A stretch of 64,000 nt of DNA from Candidatus Omnitrophota bacterium (GTDB taxonomy: Bacteria; Ratteibacteria; UBA8468; B48-G9; JAFGKM01), in the NCBI GenBank assembly GCA_016928555.1, contig JAFGKM010000003.1, forward strand, positions 1,112 to 65,111, in the 5' to 3' direction. The position numbers and the translations under genes are program-made. How positions within the stretch are numbered: position 1 is the stretch's first letter; each line of letters starts with the position of its first letter. Shown piece after piece: positions 1 to 9,376 of the stretch. The notes under the pieces are model-generated. The model did not search any database. It was not told the origin of the DNA and worked only from the letters and a program-made list of their open reading frames with translations.

Positions 1-467
1 TGTATTGAATGAGAAAATATAACTCCTTCGTGCTTTTCAATGGTTCCGGGAGCGATGAATCCGGCTAAAACCCCCACTGATAAAAAGGGAAGAATCAACT
101 GCGGGTGTTCGACAATGCATATGTGAAGATGCATTTCCGCTCCGAGAAGATATCCCGCAATGTAAGGGATGAATATGTCGCTTATTCCGCAGATGCCCAG
201 AGAACCTACGGTCCCGATTACCAAAGCTTTCAGGAATTTTTTCTCATACTGCCAGTACATTGCCGTAGTGGCAAGAGCTGAAACAAGCATATGCGAAGGA
301 TGAAACACGTGAAACAGCGACTGCATCAGTTTTGCGGGTTCTGCAATTCCGACAGCTTCGGTTATGAATGTCAGAATGCCCAAAAGTATCAGTCCTGCCA
401 CAACGCTTAAAATCGAAAAAGGCAGATGCTGTTTTAACCCCTCCCACACAAATTTCAACTTTTCCAC
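1..467 (-). CDS. Partial (3'-truncated by window edge) multi-pass membrane protein with His-rich motifs (HVFHPSH, HLHICIVEH); last gene of the minus-strand operon
   Basis: Manual translation of minus strand: GTG at 467-465 preceded by AAAGGAGG (480-473) 5 nt upstream; open frame runs to position 1 without stop; hydrophobic helices; 20 nt after DUF1980 stop. Not in ORF track because it runs off the window. Confidence 0.35.
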   Translation of the reverse strand, partial: MEKLKFVWEGLKQHLPFSILSVVAGLILLGILTFITEAVGIAEPAKLMQSLFHVFHPSHMLVSALATTAMYWQYEKKFLKALVIGTVGSLGICGISDIFIPYIAGYLLGAEMHLHICIVEHPQLILPFLSVGVLAGFIAPGTIEKHEGVIFSHSI

Positions 468-486
468 TTTTTCCTCCTTTCCCGGA

Positions 487-1194
487 TTAATACAAATATA
501 AATCAGCCGGTTTCGGCACTTCTTTTATGTCTTCGGCAATGATTTGAGGCTTATCTTGCCCTAAGTTTCCGCGGCCGTATACTTTTACCCATATATCCTT
601 CTGCAACTGTCCGGCCAGGCTGGACTCCACTTCAATTCCGAGGGGAGTGGCGTCGGCCGCACAGCAGGTAATGAGAAAACGGACAAGGATGAACCGGTCA
701 GCCCGTCCGTTCTGCTTAAAAACTAATCCTTCTATGCATAAAGGCTTTCCGGCAATCTCATCCGGCCTTTTTTTTGCAAGTGCGAGGAACTGTTTTACAT
801 TTAATTTTCTGTACTCTCCTTCCGTCTCCAATTGCGCCTTCATTATTTCAAGAACGTCTGTTTCTCCGGCCGCAAGTTCGCCGGTGATTCCTCTTTTCAT
901 TGCGGCGAATGAGGATAAATTGCCGGGTCTAACGATGGTTGTAAGCAGAACGGGGAAAAGAAAAGCGAGGAAAGATAAAGCGGACATAAAATCAATATCC
1001 CCCGAAACTTCTTTTCTGTATCTTTTAAGTCTTATCAGGAAAAGTATAAGGAGTATAAATGAACCGAGAATGGTGAAAGGGATGTAGTCTTTTTTAATGA
1101 ATAGCTTAAGCTTCCCGCTTGATTGTATCACAAACAGGAACAAAAGCCAGATGAATATTGTAAGCGTCTGATAAAAATTCTTCTTTTTAAACAT
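487..1194 (-). CDS. TIGR03943/DUF1980 family protein (N-terminal TM helices, C-terminal soluble domain with ITCCAADA motif)
   Basis: 235 aa; N-terminal hydrophobic segments; conserved 'FLITCCAADA' CC motif typical of DUF1980, which classically partners with a COG0701 permease (present immediately upstream, 1201-2226). Confidence 0.6.
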   Translation of the reverse strand: MFKKKNFYQTLTIFIWLLFLFVIQSSGKLKLFIKKDYIPFTILGSFILLILFLIRLKRYRKEVSGDIDFMSALSFLAFLFPVLLTTIVRPGNLSSFAAMKRGITGELAAGETDVLEIMKAQLETEGEYRKLNVKQFLALAKKRPDEIAGKPLCIEGLVFKQNGRADRFILVRFLITCCAADATPLGIEVESSLAGQLQKDIWVKVYGRGNLGQDKPQIIAEDIKEVPKPADLYLY

Positions 1195-1200
1195 GTACGT

Positions 1201-2226
1201 TTATCCTCCCGTTACCGCCGCTCCCGCAAAGCCCAGTATTAATGCCGCAAAGAACACAGCGAGAAGAAGTCTGATGACGAATTTCTTTTTGAACGTTCCG
1301 AAGTAAAGAATAGCCACGGTTATATTGGCCATCGGGCCCGCGACCATGAAGATAATTTTAGAAACAACGGGAAGGTTTGTAAAGGAGCTGGCTACAAACG
1401 CATCGGCAAAAGAACATAGGGACAGGGAAATTCCGAGCGCTTCCATTAAGAAAACCGCGAGTATTTTATTGTTTGCAAGGGATAGAAATGCGGCCCGCGG
1501 AACGAAGGTCTGGAAAAGCGCGGCTATTATTGCGCCTAAAACGAGGTATTTGCCCATTATGAGGAAATCAACCTCAGCGTGATGAAAAATTTTCTCTATT
1601 TTGGAAAAAGATTTGTGATTTTCTTCGCAGTAAATTTCTCCCGTTCGCTCTTTAAGAATTCCCTCTTTCAAAAAGCGTTTCAGAATAAAAGGAGTTATTA
1701 CGGATACGGCGAACGCAATCAGAATTCTGCCCAAAACAACTTCTTTTGAAGCCGAAAAGGCAAGAAAAGTGGCTAAAATGGTAACGGGGTTTATTATTGG
1801 GGCGGCAAGCATATAGGTTATTACCCCCGATGGAGCAGCGCCTTTTTTTAAAAGCCTTTTTGCCAGCACGACGTTGCCGCATGAACAAACGGGGAAAAAC
1901 ATACCGAGAAAAGGACTCCCTATTGTATGTAAAAAACTGTTCCCGGAGAATATTTTTTGAATTTTTTCTCCCGGAATAAGAACCTCCATAATACCGGAAA
2001 TCAGGGCGCCTATCAGGATGAAGGGGAGGGCTTCCAGCAATATTGCCGCGACTATCATCGTGAAAACCTGCAACTGGGGGTTTTGCAGAATCTTTGGTAT
2101 TGCGCTGATTTCTCCAGAATGCCATAAACTGTTGAGAATAAAAATCAAGACGGCGCCTGCCGTTATGAGGGTTTTTTTCAGAAAGTTTTCATATCTGCTT
2201 GTTTTCTTCATTTGATTCTTTCCCAA
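1201..2226 (-). CDS. COG0701/DUF318 permease, ArsP-like (conserved PVCSCG motif)
   Basis: 341 aa polytopic membrane protein; 'FFPVCSCGNVV' resembles the TPFcSCS motif of ArsP-type permeases; classic partner of DUF1980; 19-nt overlap with upstream ATPase gene. Confidence 0.65.
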   Translation of the reverse strand: MGKNQMKKTSRYENFLKKTLITAGAVLIFILNSLWHSGEISAIPKILQNPQLQVFTMIVAAILLEALPFILIGALISGIMEVLIPGEKIQKIFSGNSFLHTIGSPFLGMFFPVCSCGNVVLAKRLLKKGAAPSGVITYMLAAPIINPVTILATFLAFSASKEVVLGRILIAFAVSVITPFILKRFLKEGILKERTGEIYCEENHKSFSKIEKIFHHAEVDFLIMGKYLVLGAIIAALFQTFVPRAAFLSLANNKILAVFLMEALGISLSLCSFADAFVASSFTNLPVVSKIIFMVAGPMANITVAILYFGTFKKKFVIRLLLAVFFAALILGFAGAAVTGG

Positions 2227-3083
2227 AGCTTGCCTATATCCCCGGTTATGGAATCATTGCTGAATTCGGCAAAAGGAAGCTGTTTGACAACAGACTGAAC
2301 TATTCTTTCCGAAAAAGGTATTTTCCCTATGACTTCTATGCTTTTTTCCCCACAAATTTTTTCGATGTCTTCGGAGTTTTCAATATTGATGTCGTATTTG
2401 TTTATCACAACCTTTGTTTCAACTCCGAAATGTTCGGCAACCTGTATTACCCTCTGCATGTCGCTGATGCCCGAAAGGGTGGGTTCCGTAACCACAAGAG
2501 CGATATCAACCCCGGACATGGATGCAATGACAGGGCATCCTATGCCCGGAGGGCCGTCTATTATAATATAATCGCATTTATGCATTTTTGCAATTTTATG
2601 CGCCTCTTCCTTGATTTTTGAGACCAGTTTTCCGGAATTTTCCGCCGCTATGCCCAGTTTCGCAAAAACAAACGGTCCGTATTTGGTATCCGATATGAAC
2701 CATTTGCCGCTCTCTTTTTCCTTCAGTTCCACTGCGCCAACCGGACATGCGTACCTGCAGGCGCCGCATCCTTCGCAGGAAAAAGGATCTATGACAATCT
2801 TCTCAGCGCATCCTTTTTTATCCTTTATGACTTTGATTGCTTCAAACCTGCAGGCCTTCAGACACTTCTCGCACTGTATGCATTTGTCCTGGTTTATTTC
2901 CGCTTCCCAGCCGCCTTTGAATACCTCGGCTTTTTTTATGTCGGGATGCAAGAGAAGATAAAGGTTGGCGGCGTCAACGTCGCAGTCAACCATTACCTTG
3001 TTTTTTGCAAGAACGGCAAGAGAAGCCGTCATAAAGGTTTTTCCCGTACCGCCTTTGCCGCTTATAACGAGTATTTTTTTCAT
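2208..3083 (-). CDS. MinD/ParA-superfamily P-loop ATPase with inserted 2x[4Fe-4S] ferredoxin domain (COG1149, CooC-like)
   Basis: Walker A 'SGKGGTGKT' at N-terminus; two CxxCxxCxxxC(P) motifs (CIQCEKCLKAC, CEGCGACRYACP); 4-nt overlap with upstream paralog. Confidence 0.75.
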   Translation of the reverse strand: MKKILVISGKGGTGKTFMTASLAVLAKNKVMVDCDVDAANLYLLLHPDIKKAEVFKGGWEAEINQDKCIQCEKCLKACRFEAIKVIKDKKGCAEKIVIDPFSCEGCGACRYACPVGAVELKEKESGKWFISDTKYGPFVFAKLGIAAENSGKLVSKIKEEAHKIAKMHKCDYIIIDGPPGIGCPVIASMSGVDIALVVTEPTLSGISDMQRVIQVAEHFGVETKVVINKYDINIENSEDIEKICGEKSIEVIGKIPFSERIVQSVVKQLPFAEFSNDSITGDIGKLWERIK

Positions 3084-3961
3084 TTCTGTCTTCTTTTCGC
3101 TTCAACTATGCTGCAGATATCATAAAACAGTTTTTTGAATACTTCCCTGAATTCCGGGGATGATTCAACAAGGGGAATTCCTTTTGAGTATGCAACGGCG
3201 ATTTCTCTTCTGAAGGGTATGCGCAGGAGCACGGGGACTTTTTCCTTGGAACAGTATTCTTCAACCGCGCTGTCGCCTATATCCGAACGGTTGATTACCA
3301 CGCCTGCCGGCACGTTTAATTCTCTTGTCATCTCCACTGCCAGAGCGAGGTCGTTTAATCCGAAAGGCGTAGGTTCTGTGACCAGAAGGCAGAAATCCGA
3401 ACCGTTAACCGCCTGTACTACCGGACAGCTCGTACCGGGGGAAGAATCAATAATGTTTATTTTGCCGTCCTCCGCATATTTTTTTACCGCTTTTACAAGG
3501 GGAACGGGGTTTGCTTCCGACGGCTTCAGCCGTCCATGGGCAAAGAAAAACCCATTTTTTGCGGTGCCGGTTTCCACCTCGCCTTTTTCCCCGGGCTCCT
3601 CATGGATTGCCCGTTGGGTGCATGCCAGAGAGCAGGCGCCGCAGCTGTGGCACAATTCATAGAAAAAAAGCACACTGCCTTTGGTTTTACCTGCCATTGG
3701 CTTGATAACGGCTACAGCATTGTAAACGCATGCGGAAGCGCAGCTGCCGCAAAAGTTGCATTTTTCAATGTTCACCCTGGGTTTGGGCAGATAAACCTTA
3801 ACGCTTTTATCTATCACCGGTTTTAAAAAAATATAGCCGTTGGGCTCTTCCACGTCGCAGTCAAAAAACCGTACGTTTTCAGCTCCCAGCGATAAAGCAA
3901 GCGACGTGGAAACAAGAGTTTTGCCCGTTCCCCCTTTTCCGCTCGCTACCGTAATAATCAT
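3080..3961 (-). CDS. MinD/ParA-superfamily P-loop ATPase with inserted 2x[4Fe-4S] ferredoxin domain (paralog of 2208-3083)
   Basis: Walker A 'SGKGGTGKT'; CNFCGSCASAC and CHSCGACSLAC motifs; same architecture as neighbour. Confidence 0.75.
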   Translation of the reverse strand: MIITVASGKGGTGKTLVSTSLALSLGAENVRFFDCDVEEPNGYIFLKPVIDKSVKVYLPKPRVNIEKCNFCGSCASACVYNAVAVIKPMAGKTKGSVLFFYELCHSCGACSLACTQRAIHEEPGEKGEVETGTAKNGFFFAHGRLKPSEANPVPLVKAVKKYAEDGKINIIDSSPGTSCPVVQAVNGSDFCLLVTEPTPFGLNDLALAVEMTRELNVPAGVVINRSDIGDSAVEEYCSKEKVPVLLRIPFRREIAVAYSKGIPLVESSPEFREVFKKLFYDICSIVEAKRRQK

Positions 3962-3962
3962 T

Positions 3963-4181
3963 TTATCCCCTTACCATTTTTGTTCCGCACTTTGGACAGT
4001 TTCTGTCAAAGCAGGGGACTCCTGCTTGATGCACTGCTTTCTCCCCGCATGATGGGCATACGCAAAAGCCTCCGGGTCCTGCCGCTCTGCCTCCCATTCT
4101 TCCTCCTGCGCCTCTTCCCTGTCCTCTTCTTCCTGTCATGGGTCCCTGTCCCAGCGGTCCCGTTCCGTCTCCTCTCGGCAT
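3963..4181 (-). CDS. DUF5320 family protein (MPRGDGTGP N-terminus, Gly/Arg-rich linker, C-terminal 4-Cys zinc ribbon)
   Basis: Start placed at ATG 4181 (MPRGDGTGP) because AAGGGGGGTGAG SD lies directly upstream; ORF track start 4217 is an N-terminal extension. C-term CxxC...CxxC (CPSCGEK...CPKCGTK). Confidence 0.6.
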   Translation of the reverse strand: MPRGDGTGPLGQGPMTGRRGQGRGAGGRMGGRAAGPGGFCVCPSCGEKAVHQAGVPCFDRNCPKCGTKMVRG

Positions 4182-4373
4182 GTTGCTCACCCCCCTTTTA
4201 CCCCGCTTTCCCTTCACGCATATAGGTTCATTATCTGCGTCGTCAGCTTCCTCGACGTATTATACATACGCCTCGTTGCTTCCTCCTTGCTTCTTCCTTC
4301 TATACATGAATTGAAAACGGGCGTCTATATTGCTCTGTTTTATCTCCATAGGAATTACACAAAGCAATTAACA

Positions 4374-4763
4374 CTAATCACTGTTTTTTTCGTGGTCGCA
4401 TTCTGTTTTTTCAAGACCGTAATTTTTCCCTGCGCCCGGCGCGCATAAACTTTCTCCGGATTGAAGTTCTCCTTCCAGCAGTTTCTCTATCACATCGTTG
4501 ATTTTTCCTTCAATGCCCACAATTGCCTCTATTCCGCGTTCCCTGAATAATTCTGCAGCTCTCTGGCCCATTCCGCCGCAGATAATTGAACGCACGCCCT
4601 TTTCATGCAGAAACTCCGGAAGGTAGCCGGGATGGTGTCCGGGGTTTTCCAGCACCTCCTTTTTTACAACCGCGTTAGTTTCAATGTCAACGATTGTGAA
4701 AGAGGGGCATCTTCCGAAATGAGGGGAAACGAAATCTCCTTCTGTAGAAATAGCGAAACGCAT
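4374..4763 (-). CDS. NifX/NifB-type dinitrogenase FeMo-cofactor-family domain protein (PF02579-like)
   Basis: 129 aa; 'MRFAISTEGDFVSPHFGRCPSFTIVD...ICGGMGQRAAELF...' matches the NifX/NafY/NifB C-terminal fold signature (HFG, GG.G motifs). Confidence 0.7.
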   Translation of the reverse strand: MRFAISTEGDFVSPHFGRCPSFTIVDIETNAVVKKEVLENPGHHPGYLPEFLHEKGVRSIICGGMGQRAAELFRERGIEAIVGIEGKINDVIEKLLEGELQSGESLCAPGAGKNYGLEKTECDHEKNSD

Positions 4764-4777
4764 AGTACACCTCCGAT

Positions 4778-5158
4778 TTATTGTTTCTTCCCGCCCATGC
4801 CGAAGTGAGGCGATACCGTGGGAGCGGCGGCATCTGCGTTCAGGGAGCCCTTTTTAAAGGCTTCCACGGCATCTTTCACTTTGCCGCTGGCTCCGGTTAT
4901 TGCCTTGATGCCTGCCTGCTGAAGTACGTTTGCGGCATTAGGCCCGAGATTTCCCGTAAGTACAAACTCAACTCCTTTTTCCGCCATCAACTGCCCGTTT
5001 TGCACTCCGACTCCGCCCATACCTGCCGCGTTTGTATTATCAAGCGCCTCAAAATTGTCCGTTTCAGTATCATAAAAAATAAAATAGGCGCACCTGCCGA
5101 ATCGGGGGTCAACATTCGCTTCAAGACTATTTCCGTCAGCGGTTATGCAAATCTTCAT
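4778..5158 (-). CDS. NifX/NifB-type dinitrogenase FeMo-cofactor-family domain protein (second paralog)
   Basis: Start set at internal ATG 5158 (MKICITADG...PRFGRCAYFIFYD...LTGNLGPNAANVL); the 38-aa upstream extension of the ORF track lacks support. Confidence 0.65.
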   Translation of the reverse strand: MKICITADGNSLEANVDPRFGRCAYFIFYDTETDNFEALDNTNAAGMGGVGVQNGQLMAEKGVEFVLTGNLGPNAANVLQQAGIKAITGASGKVKDAVEAFKKGSLNADAAAPTVSPHFGMGGKKQ

Positions 5159-5234
5159 AGTTATTCCTCCGTGGAAAATAATACCTGCAGGGCGGCAAAA
5201 TACCGCCCCGCAGATAGTGCGATGAACCGCACCG

Positions 5235-5660
5235 TTACTTTGCCTTTCCTGCCTCTTTCTCAAGTTCAGCAATCCTTTTCTTCATGTCGCCCAGCTGTTC
5301 CTCCAGAATCTTTGTCTGCGACTGAAGCATCTCCCTTTCTTGTTCTGGAGTTGCCTGCCAGACAGCATAAGGGTCGATTGCCGGGTCAGGAGCAAAAGGA
5401 TAGGATACAGGGCCTGTCGGATATGGTGCATTCCCAAAATAGGGGTTTCCGTAAAACCATCTGCCTCTTCCCATTCCTCTGCCAAAACCTCTGCCGAATC
5501 CTCTGCCTCTGCCAAACCCGCGGCCCCATCCAAAACCTAATCCGCGGCCGCCGGCATAAGGATTCATGTAACCGGGAACTCCATAACCTGCACAGTATCC
5601 TGCCGCCCTGCCTGTCATCGGACCGAGTCCTGCCGGTCCCGTTCCGTCTCCGCGTGGCAT
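5235..5660 (-). CDS. DUF5320 family protein with RGF/RGG low-complexity repeats and C-terminal coiled coil
   Basis: Start at ATG 5660 (MPRGDGTGPAGLGPMTGR) with AAGGAGGTGAG SD upstream, same start architecture as 3963-4181; (GRGFGRG)n repeats; C-terminal heptad-like ...EEQLGDMKKRIAELEKEAGK. Confidence 0.6.
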   Translation of the reverse strand: MPRGDGTGPAGLGPMTGRAAGYCAGYGVPGYMNPYAGGRGLGFGWGRGFGRGRGFGRGFGRGMGRGRWFYGNPYFGNAPYPTGPVSYPFAPDPAIDPYAVWQATPEQEREMLQSQTKILEEQLGDMKKRIAELEKEAGKAK

Positions 5661-5687
5661 ATTACTCACCTCCTTTACCCCGAACTC

Positions 5688-6185
5688 TCACATACTAAGC
5701 TTGCCAAGTGAGGGATTATGATTTTTATCTTCACTTCTGCATGTCTCACACAGTCCGTAAAAATGTATTATGTGACTTTTTATGTCAAACCGGTGTTTTT
5801 TGGCAAGCGCGTCCTCTGTTTTTTTAATCAGCTCCTTTTCCTCGTCAACAAAATCCGTATAGTTAACAATTTTTCTGCATTTTGTGCATACAAGATGGTG
5901 GTGGTGCGCATCTTTCCGGCTTCCTTCTATCAGCTCATACCTTGCCTTCCCGTCTCCGAAATCAAACTTTTGAACCATGCCCATCCTTGTCAGCAAATCA
6001 AGGGTTCTGTAAACGGTGGCAAAGCCGATTGAAGGGTTTATTCCGCGTACAAGAAAGTAAATATCCTCGGCGCTTAAATGTTTTGAGGTTTTACTTAGTA
6101 TGTTAAGAATAATCCTTCGCGCTTCCGTTATACGCAGACCTTCCGCAACCAGCCTTTGGTGCGCCCACGGGTTTCCGCATCTCAT
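5688..6185 (-). CDS. Fur-family metalloregulator (Fur/Zur/PerR superfamily)
   Basis: 165 aa; winged-helix N-term (TEARRIILNIL), HHHHLVC and CxxC metal-site motifs; own promoter carries a Fur box. Confidence 0.8.
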   Translation of the reverse strand: MRCGNPWAHQRLVAEGLRITEARRIILNILSKTSKHLSAEDIYFLVRGINPSIGFATVYRTLDLLTRMGMVQKFDFGDGKARYELIEGSRKDAHHHHLVCTKCRKIVNYTDFVDEEKELIKKTEDALAKKHRFDIKSHIIHFYGLCETCRSEDKNHNPSLGKLSM

Positions 6186-6196
6186 TTCCGCCCCCT

Positions 6197-6221
6197 AATG
6201 ATAATAATTCTCATTATCATT
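6197..6221 (-). promoter_or_regulatory. Fur box (inverted repeat AATGATAAT-n7-ATTATCATT; minus-strand reading GATAATGAGAATTATTATC)
   Basis: 17/19 match to canonical Fur box GATAATGATAATCATTATC; sits between -10 and SD of the fur-family gene. Confidence 0.7.
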
Positions 6222-6247
6222 TTACCTTTGTATAAAGCAACTGTCAA
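6219..6247 (-). promoter_or_regulatory. sigma70-type promoter (minus strand: TTGACA-17nt-TAAAAT) for the fur-headed operon
   Basis: Minus-strand read: cTCTTGACAgttgctttatacaaaggTAAAATgataatgag...; perfect -35, 17-nt spacer, 5/6 -10; Fur box overlaps -10/+1. Confidence 0.6.
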
Positions 6248-6321
6248 GAGATGATTGAAAATACTCTAAAGGGCTGGGATTGCCGCGCTGAGAAACGCTC
6301 GCAATGGCATAAAGCGCCAAT

Positions 6322-7023
6322 TTATGGGAGGAGGCTTTCCATGGATATCCTGCCCCAGACTCGCGCCATGGAAAAAGCCTCTGCGTATTCAACACCGCAC
6401 TGCACGCCCCTGAATCCTGCCACTTTCTCAAGCATCTTAACAGGTTCTGCCTGGTGGTGGCCCGAAAGCCACTTATACTGGCTTTCATGGGCAAGGAGCA
6501 TTTTCTTCTTTATCGCCATGAATTCTGTGATGTCAACGTAATGGCTCGGTTCAAAACCGAAGCCGGCAAGCGTTTCCATGTAGTAAATCGGCATGATTTT
6601 CTCATGGGCGGGAAGTTTTGTTTTATAAAGGGGAAGGGTTGCGGTGAAAGCCGCGTCAAATACAAGCCGGCCTGTTATTACATGGTCGGGCATGTAGTCG
6701 TTTACACTGTGGGTTATTATAACGTCGGGTTTTGCCATGCGTATGATATCCACAACCGCTATTCTCATTTCTTTTGTGGGATACAGGTCAAGGTCGCCTG
6801 CGACAGGCCCCAGCGCTTCCGCTCCTATGATTGCGGCGGAGTTTTTAGCTTCCCTGTCCCTGATATCCGCAAGTTCTTCGGGCGCTATGTCCTTTCCGCC
6901 CATGTTGCCGTTGCAAAGGTGGGCCATAAAAACTTTGTCTCCTCTTTTTGCGTACTTTGCGAGCGTTCCTCCGCAGAGTATTTCCAGGTCGTCAGGATGC
7001 GCTCCCACAGCCAGTATGTTCAT
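6322..7023 (-). CDS. PIG-L/LmbE-family N-acetylglucosaminyl deacetylase
   Basis: N-terminal 'ILAVGAHPDDLEI' (AHPDDE motif) and HxxH region characteristic of LmbE-like zinc deacetylases. Confidence 0.8.
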   Translation of the reverse strand: MNILAVGAHPDDLEILCGGTLAKYAKRGDKVFMAHLCNGNMGGKDIAPEELADIRDREAKNSAAIIGAEALGPVAGDLDLYPTKEMRIAVVDIIRMAKPDVIITHSVNDYMPDHVITGRLVFDAAFTATLPLYKTKLPAHEKIMPIYYMETLAGFGFEPSHYVDITEFMAIKKKMLLAHESQYKWLSGHHQAEPVKMLEKVAGFRGVQCGVEYAEAFSMARVWGRISMESLLP

Positions 7024-7036
7024 GCTTACTCCTCCT

Positions 7037-7987
7037 TTAATTGCATTCGGCGGTCAGCGGGCCGGCAAGTTCTTTAAGGAAAAAAAGTTTGCCAGGCAGT
7101 GTCGGCATGAAACTGCTCGGAATCCACGTGCTCGGACCGTGCCTCAGCGTTACCCATAAACTCATCCCCTGCCACATCATCCCTCTTCCGAGCGTACCGT
7201 CGGCCCCTCCGATTATTCTGTCGGCTTTCAGAAATATGCCCGGCCCTATCGTGTTGGCAAAGCATGGGACGAGAGTCGTCCTGCTTTTGAAGCTTGTTAT
7301 TGCATTCTGCTCAATGGTCAGAGGATGGAGTTTTGCGCCGACTCTGTATTCCTGTTTCTTCCATTCCTCCTCGGATTTGAATTCCGCGGCGAAATGCGGC
7401 TCCCAGAATGCTATGTGGAAAATCCTTCCTATGCCGAAAATCACAACCAGTTTCGCACCCTTTTTTTTCAGAGCGCTTATCCTTGAAGGATATTCGGGGA
7501 GCATCTTCTTTGTGGCGAAACACCTCTGGTTTTTGGGAACTGTAAGTTTGCCGAGCGGCCCGTAGAAAGCATCCTGCATTGCATTCTGGAATGCGCCCGG
7601 GTTATTTGAAGGCAGTGTTTTTCCGCCGCGGTCGCTCCATTCGTCCATGTTGAAACCGTACACATGCCTGCAGTCAACGTTCCATTCCCTGAGGAAATAA
7701 ACAATCCATTTGTACATCCCCATGGGGCCTACCGGAAGTATCAGTATCAGTTTTTTCCCCGCTTCCCGCGCAGTGCATATTTCCGCGGCTATCTCGTGCC
7801 CCATCTTTGCGTTGAATTCTTCCAGCGTTTCGCAGGGCACCGGGGCAAAGTTTTTGTTCCACCATTTCTGGCGCTCCGTTATTTTATCCGGGGGGTTAGC
7901 GCAGCATCCGTCAATCTTTTTCATGTCCCATCCGGCGGGAAAGAAATTTTCCAGAAGAGAGCCCTTCATAGTAGTTATAAGGTTCAT
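7037..7987 (-). CDS. Glucosamine-6-phosphate deaminase/isomerase (NagB) family protein
   Basis: '[12 protein letters not shown]...FNMDEW' and '[15 protein letters not shown]' correspond to NagB 'LGLPTGGTP...FNMDEY' and 'GGVGNDGHIAFNEP' motifs. Confidence 0.65.
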
Positions 7988-8051
7988 TGTTCCTCCTTGT
8001 TACCAACAGAGTTGAATTATAATAGCACAATATTTTTTGTTTGAAAAACGC

Positions 8052-8080
8052 TTGACTTTTTCAATTATTTATATTATTGT
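8052..8080 (+). promoter_or_regulatory. Putative promoter for degT-like operon (TTGACT-17nt-TATTGT)
   Basis: Good -35, weak -10; located in divergent intergenic region 7988-8116; SD GGGGAGGT 7 nt before ATG 8117. Confidence 0.3.
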
Positions 8081-8116
8081 AAATAACGTAAAAAATCAAA
8101 TACGGGGAGGTATAAA

Positions 8117-9376
8117 ATGGAAAAACTGGCAATTGAAGGGGGAAAACCGGTCAATGCTGAAAAGTTTCCGATGTGGCCGTCTTTTTCGGAAAAATCCATA
8201 AAGATGGTTTCCGAGCCGTTGAAGACGGGCAGGGTTAATTACTGGACTGGAGAAGAAGGCGTAAGGTTTGAGAAGGAATGGGCGAAATGGAACGGGGCAA
8301 AGTATGCCGTTACCACGACAAACGGCACAAGCGCCCTGCATACGGCCGTTGCGGCGCTCGGAATCGGACCCGGGGATGAAATTATATGCCCGTCATATTC
8401 CTTTATCGCCTCATCTTTCTGCGTATTGCAGGCAGGCGCCCTTCCCGTCTTTGCCGACGTTGACGAGTCGCATACCTTAAGCCCGAAAGAGATAGAGCCG
8501 CTTATTAACGAAAGGACGAAGGCGGTAATTGCCGTTCATCTTTACGGGGTTGTGGCGGACATGGAGCCGATTCTCGCGGTCGCCAAAAAACACAACCTTG
8601 CCGTTATAGAGGACTGCGCCCAGTGCTTCGGCGGGATTTACAAAGGCAATAAAGTAGGGACTGTCGGCGATGTAGGATGTTTCAGTTTCTGCCAGAGCAA
8701 GCATTTTACAACCGGCGGAGAAGGCGGGGCGATTATAACCGACAATGAGGATTTGTGGTGGGAGTGCAAGTCGTTCAGGGACCACGGTTATGACGTGAAA
8801 GAGCGCCTTCGCCTTCTTGAACTGGAAGAAAAACTTACATATATTCACAAGAGAGTCGGGTTTAATTACCGAATGACAGAGATGCAGTCTTTGATAGGCT
8901 TGTGCGAGCTTGAAAGGTTTGACAGTTGGAATCTTGCAAACAGAAAGAGAAATGCGAAGTATCTTATCGATGCATTGAAGGGGCATCCGCTGGTGCTTCA
9001 CACGCCGGTTGATACGCAGGAGAGGCAGAATGCGTTCTGGTGGGTGCCGTTTGTGATTGATGCGGATAAACTTAAGGTTACCGTGAAGCAGTTTGTCGCG
9101 GCGGTGGGAGCGGAAGGCGTGCCTGTTTACGGCGTCCAGTGGCCGGAGATGTACAGGGAAGCAGCTTATACCGGAAAACATGGCTTCGGGAAACTGCAGT
9201 ATCCGTTTAACGACCCGAGCGCAAGGAAGATTGATTACACCAAATTTGACTGCAAAAAGGCGCAGTGGCTTTCTAAGAGGACGATGAATTTCTTCCCGCA
9301 TCCGGTCTATGAGATAAAGCATATGGAAAAATGCGTTGAGGCGTTCAAAAAGGTTGCGGACGCATATATGAAATAA
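8117..9376 (+). CDS. DegT/DnrJ/EryC1/StrS-family PLP-dependent sugar aminotransferase
   Basis: 419 aa; conserved 'SFCQSKHFTTGGEGGAI' region containing the PLP-binding lysine; 'NGTSALH' motif. Confidence 0.85.
   Translation: MEKLAIEGGKPVNAEKFPMWPSFSEKSIKMVSEPLKTGRVNYWTGEEGVRFEKEWAKWNGAKYAVTTTNGTSALHTAVAALGIGPGDEIICPSYSFIASSFCVLQAGALPVFADVDESHTLSPKEIEPLINERTKAVIAVHLYGVVADMEPILAVAKKHNLAVIEDCAQCFGGIYKGNKVGTVGDVGCFSFCQSKHFTTGGEGGAIITDNEDLWWECKSFRDHGYDVKERLRLLELEEKLTYIHKRVGFNYRMTEMQSLIGLCELERFDSWNLANRKRNAKYLIDALKGHPLVLHTPVDTQERQNAFWWVPFVIDADKLKVTVKQFVAAVGAEGVPVYGVQWPEMYREAAYTGKHGFGKLQYPFNDPSARKIDYTKFDCKKAQWLSKRTMNFFPHPVYEIKHMEKCVEAFKKVADAYMK

Follow-up and report, generated by a model that had tools for sequence, protein, structure and literature searches.

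A probable orange protein-type operon with its own predicted Fur-family repressor and an inserted membrane transport module in a Candidatus Omnitrophota bacterium

The start of a 64,000-nucleotide stretch of DNA from a Candidatus Omnitrophota bacterium (GenBank assembly GCA_016928555.1, contig JAFGKM010000003.1, positions 1,112 to 65,111; the whole stretch is called the window) carries a Fur-family regulator gene followed by genes for DUF5320 proteins, PF02579 proteins, iron-sulfur (Fe-S) ATPases and membrane proteins, which raises the question of what system these genes form and to which signal it responds. The domain content, gene order and control region make it probable that the locus is an operon of the orange protein complex (ORP) type that has its own Fur-family repressor and to which a membrane transport module has been added. 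With similar confidence, it is best read as an iron-repressed operon for metal or Fe-S trafficking, with iron as the presumed signalling metal and uptake as the presumed direction of transport.

All ten genes listed in an earlier note on this DNA were confirmed on the minus strand between positions 1 and 6185 (the features of the operon and its control region described below lie on that strand), nine with Pfam support and the tenth extending past the window edge at position 1. The count of ten did not stand, since an identical Logan contig (L001; related loci are referred to by L numbers) continues beyond position 1, completes gene 10 as a protein of 210 amino acids, here called Mem210, and holds 7 nucleotides (nt) downstream a gene for a 286-amino acid Mrp/NBP35 ATPase. 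The operon thus has at least 11 genes, in the order fur, DUF5320, orange-protein homologue, free-standing MrpORP Di-Nase domain, Cys-rich DUF5320, ATPase a, ATPase b, ArsP_1, DUF1980, Mem210 and Mrp/NBP35. In an 88%-related locus (L162/L163) it goes on with genes for an uncharacterized protein of ∼290 amino acids, an ARMT1-like protein (DUF89) and a protein of the MBL fold. Several junctions in the window overlap or leave 1-19 nt. The note had allowed a single spacer above 20 nt; that spacer was found where it was placed (192 nt at 4182-4373), but a further gap of 73 nt follows gene 2. Gene order, promoter layout and operator all recur in independent contigs of several phyla, and the fur-ORP order is kept in loci of Omnitrophota, WOR-3, Clostridia, Elusimicrobiota and Nitrospirota, which bears out the suggestion that the genes are a conserved unit.

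Comparison of the encoded proteins with family models indicated that the set previously seen as NifX-like, COG1149 and DUF5320 genes is, together with Mrp, recognizable as an ORP cluster. Gene 3 (4778..5161) encodes an Orp8-like orange-protein homologue (PF02579, E-value 2e-26) that matched the Desulfovibrio gigas ORP structure 2wfb at an E-value of 2.9e-16; its start is most likely the ATG at 5161, which is preceded by the ribosome-binding site GGAGGA. The product of gene 4 (4374..4763; PF02579, E-value 4e-25) is a free-standing counterpart of the C-terminal Di-Nase domain of MrpORP: it matched the NCBIfam MrpORP model with 101 bits over model positions 265-365 and carries SPHFGRC and CDH, near the CXHFGHCE and CDH motifs described for this domain (PMC6345978). 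The Mrp/NBP35 gene of L001 scored 369 bits against the P-loop part of the same model (positions 2-259), and neither gene alone reached the full-length cutoff of 450. By these matches, MrpORP is present but split in two predicted genes.

Genes 6 (3080..3961) and 7 (2208..3083) encode paralogous MinD/ParA-type (CbiA/ParA) ATPases that are 33% identical, each with a ferredoxin insert containing two [4Fe-4S] motifs of the form CX2CX2CX3C. These read CNFCGSCASAC and CHSCGACSLAC in one ATPase and CIQCEKCLKAC and CEGCGACRYAC in the other, and gene 6 is Orp3/Orp4-like; the two proteins agree with what has been published on Orp3 and Orp4 (PMC6345978). More than 8000 homologues of the ATPases were found. 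When species-representative genomes were searched with an alignment of the ATPases, 80 ORP loci were obtained, spread over many phyla of anaerobic bacteria and archaea; the ATPase pair was adjacent in all of them, and 73 of the loci contained PF02579, 41 DUF5320 and 37 Mrp. The remaining core genes encode two DUF5320 proteins. The long form (gene 2, 5235..5669; PF17253, 89 bits) begins with MPRGDGTGP, contains RGF repeats and ends in a coiled coil, and the corresponding gene stands next after fur in L004, L005, L011, L157, L162, L169 and L171. The short form (gene 5, 3963..4181) has a six-Cys ribbon, CVCPSCG...CFDRNCPKCG, and scored 26.4 bits against a PF17253 cutoff of 27, its start being placed, on the model of gene 2, at the ATG of MPRGDGTGP. 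These two DUF5320 proteins may correspond to Orp5 and Orp7, for which they are candidates only; nothing functional was found in the literature on DUF5320 or COG1149.

Genes for ARMT1-like (DUF89) and MBL-fold proteins recur directly after ORP clusters, sometimes with a methyltransferase gene, and may be further members of the system (L003 3144-4941, L026 2471-4543, L162 11726-12610, L163 7449-9066, L167 14165-16461 and L169 13438-14151). L165 (1-7849) carries another ORP-type cluster, tied to iron/zinc transport and an Fe-S scaffold, in which genes for TrmO_N, NifU_N, ZIP, MBL-fold, FeoA, FeoB and RACo-like proteins stand in among those for COG1149-type ATPases. A 305-amino acid plus-strand open reading frame (4781-5698) was judged to be spurious, lying antisense to the DUF5320 and PF02579 genes, which both have Pfam support.

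The first gene (5688..6185) encodes a Fur-family repressor of 165 amino acids (PF01475, E-value 6e-32). Its NCBIfam scores were 126.7 bits with Fur, 81 with PerR and 52 with Zur, and the structures in the PDB ranked in the same order, with Fur 9ire best (E-value 8e-28), followed by PerR 2fe3 (about 5e-18) and Zur (6e-15). An alignment of 24 subfamily members showed H36, E84, H95-97, C100/C103, E116, H138 and C146/C149 to be invariant. A structural CX2C...CX2C zinc site is accordingly present (C100, C103, C146 and C149), and H36, E84 and H95-97 align with Fur 9ire, where, from published Fur structures, they are taken to form the His/Glu regulatory metal site. His36 and Glu84 are retained at positions at which Zur presumably has Asp and Cys, and the invariant Glu84 occupies a position at which PerR is assumed to carry Asp. 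On this evidence the regulator leans toward Fur and away from Zur and PerR. The protein is extended at the N-terminus by a segment with an invariant Trp, and this, together with its failure to reach any curated equivalog cutoff, indicates that it forms a subfamily of its own.

Homologues with 53-65% identity lead ORP clusters in L004 (Omnitrophota), L005 (WOR-3), L011 (Clostridia), L085, L150 and L157, and the same fur-ORP arrangement was seen in L162 and in L167, the fur gene of the latter being the same as that of L085. Three more homologues, with 56-59% identity and from an unclassified bacterium, Elusimicrobiota and Nitrospirota (L169, L170 and L171), are directly followed by DUF5320 and/or PF02579 genes. 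A fur homologue leads the ORP cluster in each of the 11 distinct homologous loci examined and, as judged from this neighborhood, the regulator belongs to a predicted Fur subfamily that is dedicated to ORP clusters. No description of such a subfamily with its operator, and no work on Fur regulons that mentions PF02579 proteins, was found in the literature.

The control region upstream of fur was found as the earlier note had placed it. A near-consensus promoter is formed by the -35 hexamer TTGACA (6242..6247), which also stands upstream of the fur homologue in L004, L005, L011, L085, L150, L157 and L162, and the -10 hexamer TAAAAT (6219..6224), separated by a 17-nt spacer. With 11 of 12 positions matching, it is the sole site of this quality and the best promoter-like site in 1-7100; the number of promoter-like sites across the region is at chance level overall. 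No promoter-like site on the coding strand was present in either large gap (73 or 192 nt), and no sigma54 (-24/-12) element was found near the operon. The predicted Fur-type operator (6199..6218) abuts the -10 element and covers the expected transcription start. Its 19-bp box, GATAATGAGAATTATTATC, at 6218-6200 matches the Escherichia coli Fur consensus at 17 of 19 positions, again as earlier reported, and its 7-1-7 core is TGAGAAT-T-ATTATCA (6213-6199); nowhere else in the window is the family pattern matched exactly. Three operator-like sites elsewhere in the window (2133, 35109 and 41350) were discounted, as they lie inside genes and occur at chance level.

The operator position is identical across the fur-ORP loci examined, each of which has a TTGACA-type promoter and a dyad just before the ribosome-binding site. 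The 7-1-7 dyads include TGAAAATGATTTTCA in L004, TGGAAACCATTTTCA in L005, TGGAAATGGTTATCA in L011, TGAAAATCATTTTCA in L150, TGAAAACCATTATCA in L157 and L169, and TGAGAATTATTATCA in the window, L085, L162 and L167; the conserved form is TGAAAAT-N-ATTTTCA. A weight matrix built from six sites (the window and five homologous loci) was scanned over 1.9 Mb of fetched DNA, and nearly all of the top hits fell at the operator position of fur-ORP loci; one branch of the subfamily had a second top-scoring site in the interval from fur to DUF5320. That branch is marked by a PWWHG N-terminus, and its second operator stands between fur and the next gene (L004 5535, L005 1633, L157 954, L169 9493, L170 9500 and L171 9489). 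In the branch to which the window regulator belongs, fur is followed by an 18-nt gap and the operator is single. The same consensus is known as the dFUR-box, WTGAAAATNATTTTCAW, which sits upstream of feoAB and fur in delta-proteobacteria (Rodionov et al. 2004, PMC545781).

Two structured regions interrupt the otherwise compact transcript. The 73-nt gap after gene 2 contains a stem-loop (5182..5216) of 16 bp with nine GC pairs, followed by UUAUUUUCC; folding of 5150-5245 gave a minimum free energy of -39.5 kcal/mol (z -5.1). A hairpin occupies the DUF5320/PF02579 junction in all seven fur-ORP loci compared (the window, L004, L005, L011, L157, L162 and L169), with ΔG values of -20 to -36 kcal/mol, a U-run after some, and a structure that is kept while the sequence differs. 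It is probably a leaky terminator or a transcript stabilizer. The 192-nt spacer (4182..4373) is purine-rich and structured (z -6.7 versus shuffled controls). It measures only 55 nt in the 88%-related L163 and has no second copy in the window or the fetched loci, and is therefore lineage-specific; a scan of 1-7100 against Rfam gave no match at E-values up to 1.

The membrane module comprises genes 8 to 10. The ArsP_1 (COG0701) permease gene (1201..2211; PF03773, 164 bits), with which the gene call in L001 agrees, begins with an ATG overlapping the preceding stop codon (ATGA), and its product has a Cys-pair (CSC) motif, FFPVCSCGNV, in a transmembrane helix; the NCBIfam models SO_0444 and SaoE were matched partially, each under its cutoff. 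A gap of 6 nt separates it from the gene for a DUF1980/TIGR03943 putative permease subunit (487..1194; PF21537 and PF09323) that scored 117 bits against a TIGR03943 cutoff of 88.8 and has a TCC motif. The first 155 codons of Mem210 (1..467, with a GTG start at 467) close the window, and the protein, of an unannotated family, is predicted to have six or seven helices. Nothing functional was found in the literature on DUF1980, COG0701 or TIGR03943.

The trio is rare. The permease pair is not a general part of the system, the trio being present in only one of the 80 ORP loci of species-representative genomes. It occurs at two insertion points: behind both ATPase genes and ahead of Mrp (ATPa-ATPb-ArsP-DUF1980-Mem210-Mrp; the window and L162/L163), and between the two ATPase genes (ATPa-ArsP-DUF1980-Mem210-ATPb; L002 from Ratteibacteria, L085, L086, L167 and L168, L086 being a fragment that begins inside DUF1980). 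Where contigs reach, Mrp follows (L085, L162/L163 and L167/L168), and fur heads L085, L162 and L167/L168. That two arrangements have the same partners argues for selection for co-expression. The trio is thus an accessory that only a few lineages of Omnitrophota and Ratteibacteria have. In the variant of L167/L168 (6459-12337) and L085, Fur, two small proteins, both ATPases, ArsP_1, DUF1980, Mem210 and Mrp are encoded; one small protein is DUF5320-like with an MPGGDGTGP N-terminus and the other is Trp/Arg-rich with a coiled coil, no PF02579 gene is present, and a peroxiredoxin/thioredoxin gene is divergent from the fur promoter. In L084, DUF1980, a Fur-like gene and Mem210 stand in that order, with no ORP genes in view.

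Mem210 had no Pfam or NCBIfam match at E-values up to 1. It has 354 homologues, none of them named, and a profile search of 1.84 billion proteins returned 408 cluster representatives and no link to a larger family. The protein, which the earlier note had called His-rich, instead has conserved His and Cys motifs and no His-rich tract. A confident AlphaFold model of its 88% relative (predicted local distance difference test score 91.8) was available. Mem210 appears to have a 3+3 internal repeat with conserved His, Cys and Asp motifs within transmembrane helices, and its halves share motifs (hhalign P 0.004): FHxFHPxH...SAxATT and CGISDIxIPY in the first, and SHSxHV...SAxAS and PCCxSDIxFPL in the second. 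Foldseek comparison of Mem210 with the PDB gave nothing significant (best E-value 0.18), and the modeled fold appears TRIC-like. Sequence identity to prokaryotic TRIC channels (PDB 5h36 and 5wtr) is 9-12%, with no Pfam match, and Mem210 differs from those channels in the conserved His, Cys and Asp motifs, which suggest a metal site. A candidate metal transporter is the best reading of this protein.

In 11 of 64 loci the gene immediately upstream of Mem210 is of the Fur family, mostly from another Fur branch, and ORP genes occur within 10 kb of Mem210 in 8 of 46. The Mem210 relatives that follow this other branch are ∼36% identical; their Fur-like proteins are ∼27% identical to that of the window and have their own palindrome, ATGCAATAnTATTGCAT, ∼60 nt upstream of the Fur-like gene (L127, L129, L134, L138, L139, L142, L144 and L145). 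Pfam scans of longer Mem210 members gave only fusions to DUF3299 or methyltransferase domains and weak ZIP hits. P0510 (588 amino acids) joins Mem210 to a DUF3299 domain whose LLRTTQTCC is similar to LVRFLITCC of DUF1980_C, and P0464 (395 amino acids) joins it to a class I methyltransferase. A BLASTP comparison between DUF1980 and the DUF3299 fusion gave no significant match, the likeness being limited to the short TCC motif.

These observations can be accommodated by the following model. A Fur dimer with its co-repressor metal, most likely Fe(II), would cover the -10 element and transcription start, silencing the operon including fur itself, and metal scarcity would lead to derepression. The membrane module would then transport a thiophilic metal species, more probably inward than outward, while Mrp/NBP35 would load Fe-S clusters onto the two ATPases, as it does in vitro in Desulfovibrio vulgaris, and the PF02579 and DUF5320 proteins may hold or hand on metal-sulfur clusters. 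The hairpin after gene 2 could set the ratio of the regulator/DUF5320 part to the structural genes. The presence of ORP ATPases beside NifU, ZIP and FeoAB in L165 provides an iron and Fe-S context that supports iron as the signal. More speculatively, and only as a tentative possibility, the ORP complex may be the cytoplasmic half of an iron-starvation-induced system for uptake and processing of a metal-sulfur species in sulfidic habitats, Mem210 a new TRIC-fold-like metal transporter family working with ArsP_1/DUF1980, and the dedicated Fur subfamily the regulator that ORP clusters had ancestrally in many anaerobic phyla without cultivated members.

Several observations weigh against an iron-repressed trafficking operon. 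Repression by iron of an operon for very iron-rich proteins is counter-intuitive, and ArsP and SO_0444, the characterized relatives of ArsP_1, are exporters, a poor fit with Fur-repressed uptake. The regulator remains under every curated equivalog cutoff (126.7 versus 220 bits for Bacillus-type Fur and 93 versus 146 for E. coli-type Fur). A sequence identical to the 7-1-7 operator is the footprinted Zur operator of Streptomyces coelicolor and, since the same box is thus used by iron-responsive Fur and by that Zur, the operator indicates the regulator family rather than the metal. The unit is not fixed, since clusters of the L167 type have no PF02579 gene, and it could be divided into separate transcription units at the 192-nt spacer and at the hairpin that follows gene 2. 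In D. vulgaris, moreover, OrpR activates orp expression under reducing conditions, a control of opposite sign (PMC6345978, PMC8359166, PMC3897727).

The choice of iron can be set against a reading in which the regulator senses another metal (Zn, Ni, Co or the thiometallate-forming Mo, W or Cu) and the operon serves that metal with the ORP proteins as chaperones or cluster carriers. The identity of the operator consensus TGAAAATGATTTTCA to the S. coelicolor Zur footprint consensus would be explained in this way, as would the binding of a Mo-Cu-S cluster by the orange protein, the annotation of SO_0444 relatives of the permease as Cu/Zn transporters, and several features of Mem210 relatives: some lie near ZnuA/ZnuC-like genes (L083), a few, as judged by eye, near NikR-, LarB- and LarC-like genes, and members with His-rich loops are the source of weak ZIP hits. 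Yet Zur models fall far below Fur (52 versus 127 bits; PDB E-values 6e-15 versus 8e-28), His36 and Glu84 are kept where Zur, going by established structures, presumably uses Asp and Cys, the same box serves feoAB in delta-proteobacteria, and in L165 the ORP ATPases have FeoAB and NifU as neighbors; sensing of another metal is on balance unlikely. Still less likely is that the membrane module carries out efflux or detoxification of thiophilic metals or metalloids, with the operon as a resistance system. Efflux would suit the ArsP_1 membership at 164 bits and the Cys motifs of the three proteins (CSC in the permease, as in the efflux proteins SO_0444 and SaoE, TCC in DUF1980 and CC in Mem210), but the regulatory logic is wrong for it, as Fur-family repressors turn genes on at metal scarcity. 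The module is also flanked by Fe-S carrier and ATPase genes, the matches to the SO_0444 and SaoE models were partial and under the cutoffs, and neither a sensor of the ArsR, MerR or CsoR type nor any ars, mer or cop gene was present among the called genes of related loci or, in a survey for which the Pfam scan reached only to 6250, among the open reading frames listed for 1-9000.

A PerR-like peroxide or redox sensor, acting as a counterpart of OrpR and coupling ORP expression to redox state, is an improbable identity for the regulator. Control of orp expression by redox state in D. vulgaris, the rank of PerR as second-best model class (81 bits; PDB 2fe3 at 4.5e-18) and the peroxiredoxin/thioredoxin gene divergent from the fur promoter region in L167 and L168 would suit such a sensor. 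However, PerR derepresses on oxidation whereas the orp genes of D. vulgaris are shut off on oxidation, and that neighbor is absent from the window and L162; moreover, the operator is of the TGA type and not the TTATAAT type of PerR, and Glu84 is invariant where PerR, from what is established for that protein, is taken to have Asp. As for the integrity of the unit, it is very hard to credit that the Fur box controls only fur, or fur and DUF5320, with unrelated genes downstream by chance juxtaposition. The terminator-like hairpin after gene 2, the 192-nt structured spacer ahead of gene 5 and the chance-level total of promoter-like sites in the region would fit such independence, but the fur-ORP order persists from Omnitrophota and WOR-3 to Clostridia, Elusimicrobiota and Nitrospirota, neither gap holds a promoter-like site on the coding strand, several junctions overlap or span 1-19 nt, and the membrane trio recurs within ORP clusters at two positions. 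An iron-repressed trafficking operon is therefore retained as the best reading, and the conserved unit, with a dedicated Fur-family regulator and a conserved operator ahead of it, upholds the earlier proposal of metal-responsive cofactor or metal trafficking.

Upstream of the operon and outside it, 6322-7023, 7037-7987 and 8117-9376 apparently encode a PIG-L-type deacetylase, a glucosamine-6-phosphate isomerase-like protein and a DegT-type aminotransferase, labels that rest on sequence appearance and on syntenic gene calls in L162 and L167; the PIG-L gene upstream of the operon is syntenic in L162.

The ORP complex is widespread in anaerobic bacteria and archaea, and the sole role proposed for it, septum placement, rests on the similarity of its ATPases to MinD. 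The conserved Fur-type regulator and operator and the inserted putative metal transporters instead point to metal or Fe-S handling rather than cell division, and Mem210, about one-sixth of whose loci have a Fur-family gene directly upstream, is flagged as an unannotated candidate metal-transporter family. The earlier statement that the system had not been described as a unit and had no assigned function stands insofar as the physiological role is concerned, but not for the core, which is the ORP cluster of D. vulgaris, from which the complex has been purified. The ORP core is accordingly not new. For the predicted ORP-dedicated Fur subfamily and its operator, the division of MrpORP into two genes, the insertion of the membrane trio and the Mem210 family, no description was found in the literature.

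Comparison with characterized systems places these features in context. The sufABCDSE operon of E. coli, which encodes an Fe-S assembly system with an ATPase and cluster carriers, is repressed by Fur and comes on when iron runs short. Its likeness to the window operon is one of regulatory logic only, with no homology of components, and it has neither a membrane module nor fur. The Fur regulon of delta-proteobacteria shares with the window the 7-1-7 palindrome, an autoregulated fur and promoter-overlapping sites. That regulon is centered on feoAB, and orp genes are not listed there, whereas the window regulator is local to ORP clusters and has the Trp-containing N-terminal extension. With the ArsP, SO_0444 and SaoE permeases, the window permease has PF03773 and the CSC motif in common and, with the COG0701 and TIGR03943 permease pair, an adjacent TIGR03943 partner that scores above the cutoff. 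No ars genes (arsR, arsC and similar) or SAO genes are present in the operon and no ars genes in related loci; unlike the ArsP, SO_0444 and SaoE systems, the permease has sub-cutoff scores and is embedded in an ORP cluster.

The closest comparison is with the ORP genes of D. vulgaris, where the small proteins are Orp5, which binds [2Fe-2S], and Orp7. Two paralogous MinD-type ATPases with two [4Fe-4S] motifs each, a PF02579 orange-protein homologue, an Mrp/NBP35 carrier with a Di-Nase domain, and small accompanying proteins are common to both, and ORP clusters of the D. vulgaris and window types alike occur only in anaerobes. In D. vulgaris Hildenborough, orp5-orp4-orp3 and orp7-orp8-orp9 (DVU2103-2109) form divergent sigma54 operons under OrpR and IHF, the ORP complex has been purified, Orp3 and Orp4 receive Fe-S clusters from MrpORP in vitro, and the physiological role is put, putatively, in cell division only (PMC6345978, PMC8359166, PMC3897727). 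In contrast, the window has a single sigma70-type operon under a Fur-family repressor, its Mrp and Di-Nase domains are separate genes where those of D. vulgaris are fused as MrpORP/Orp9, and it has three inserted membrane proteins, a second PF02579 gene and an intercistronic hairpin besides the common core.

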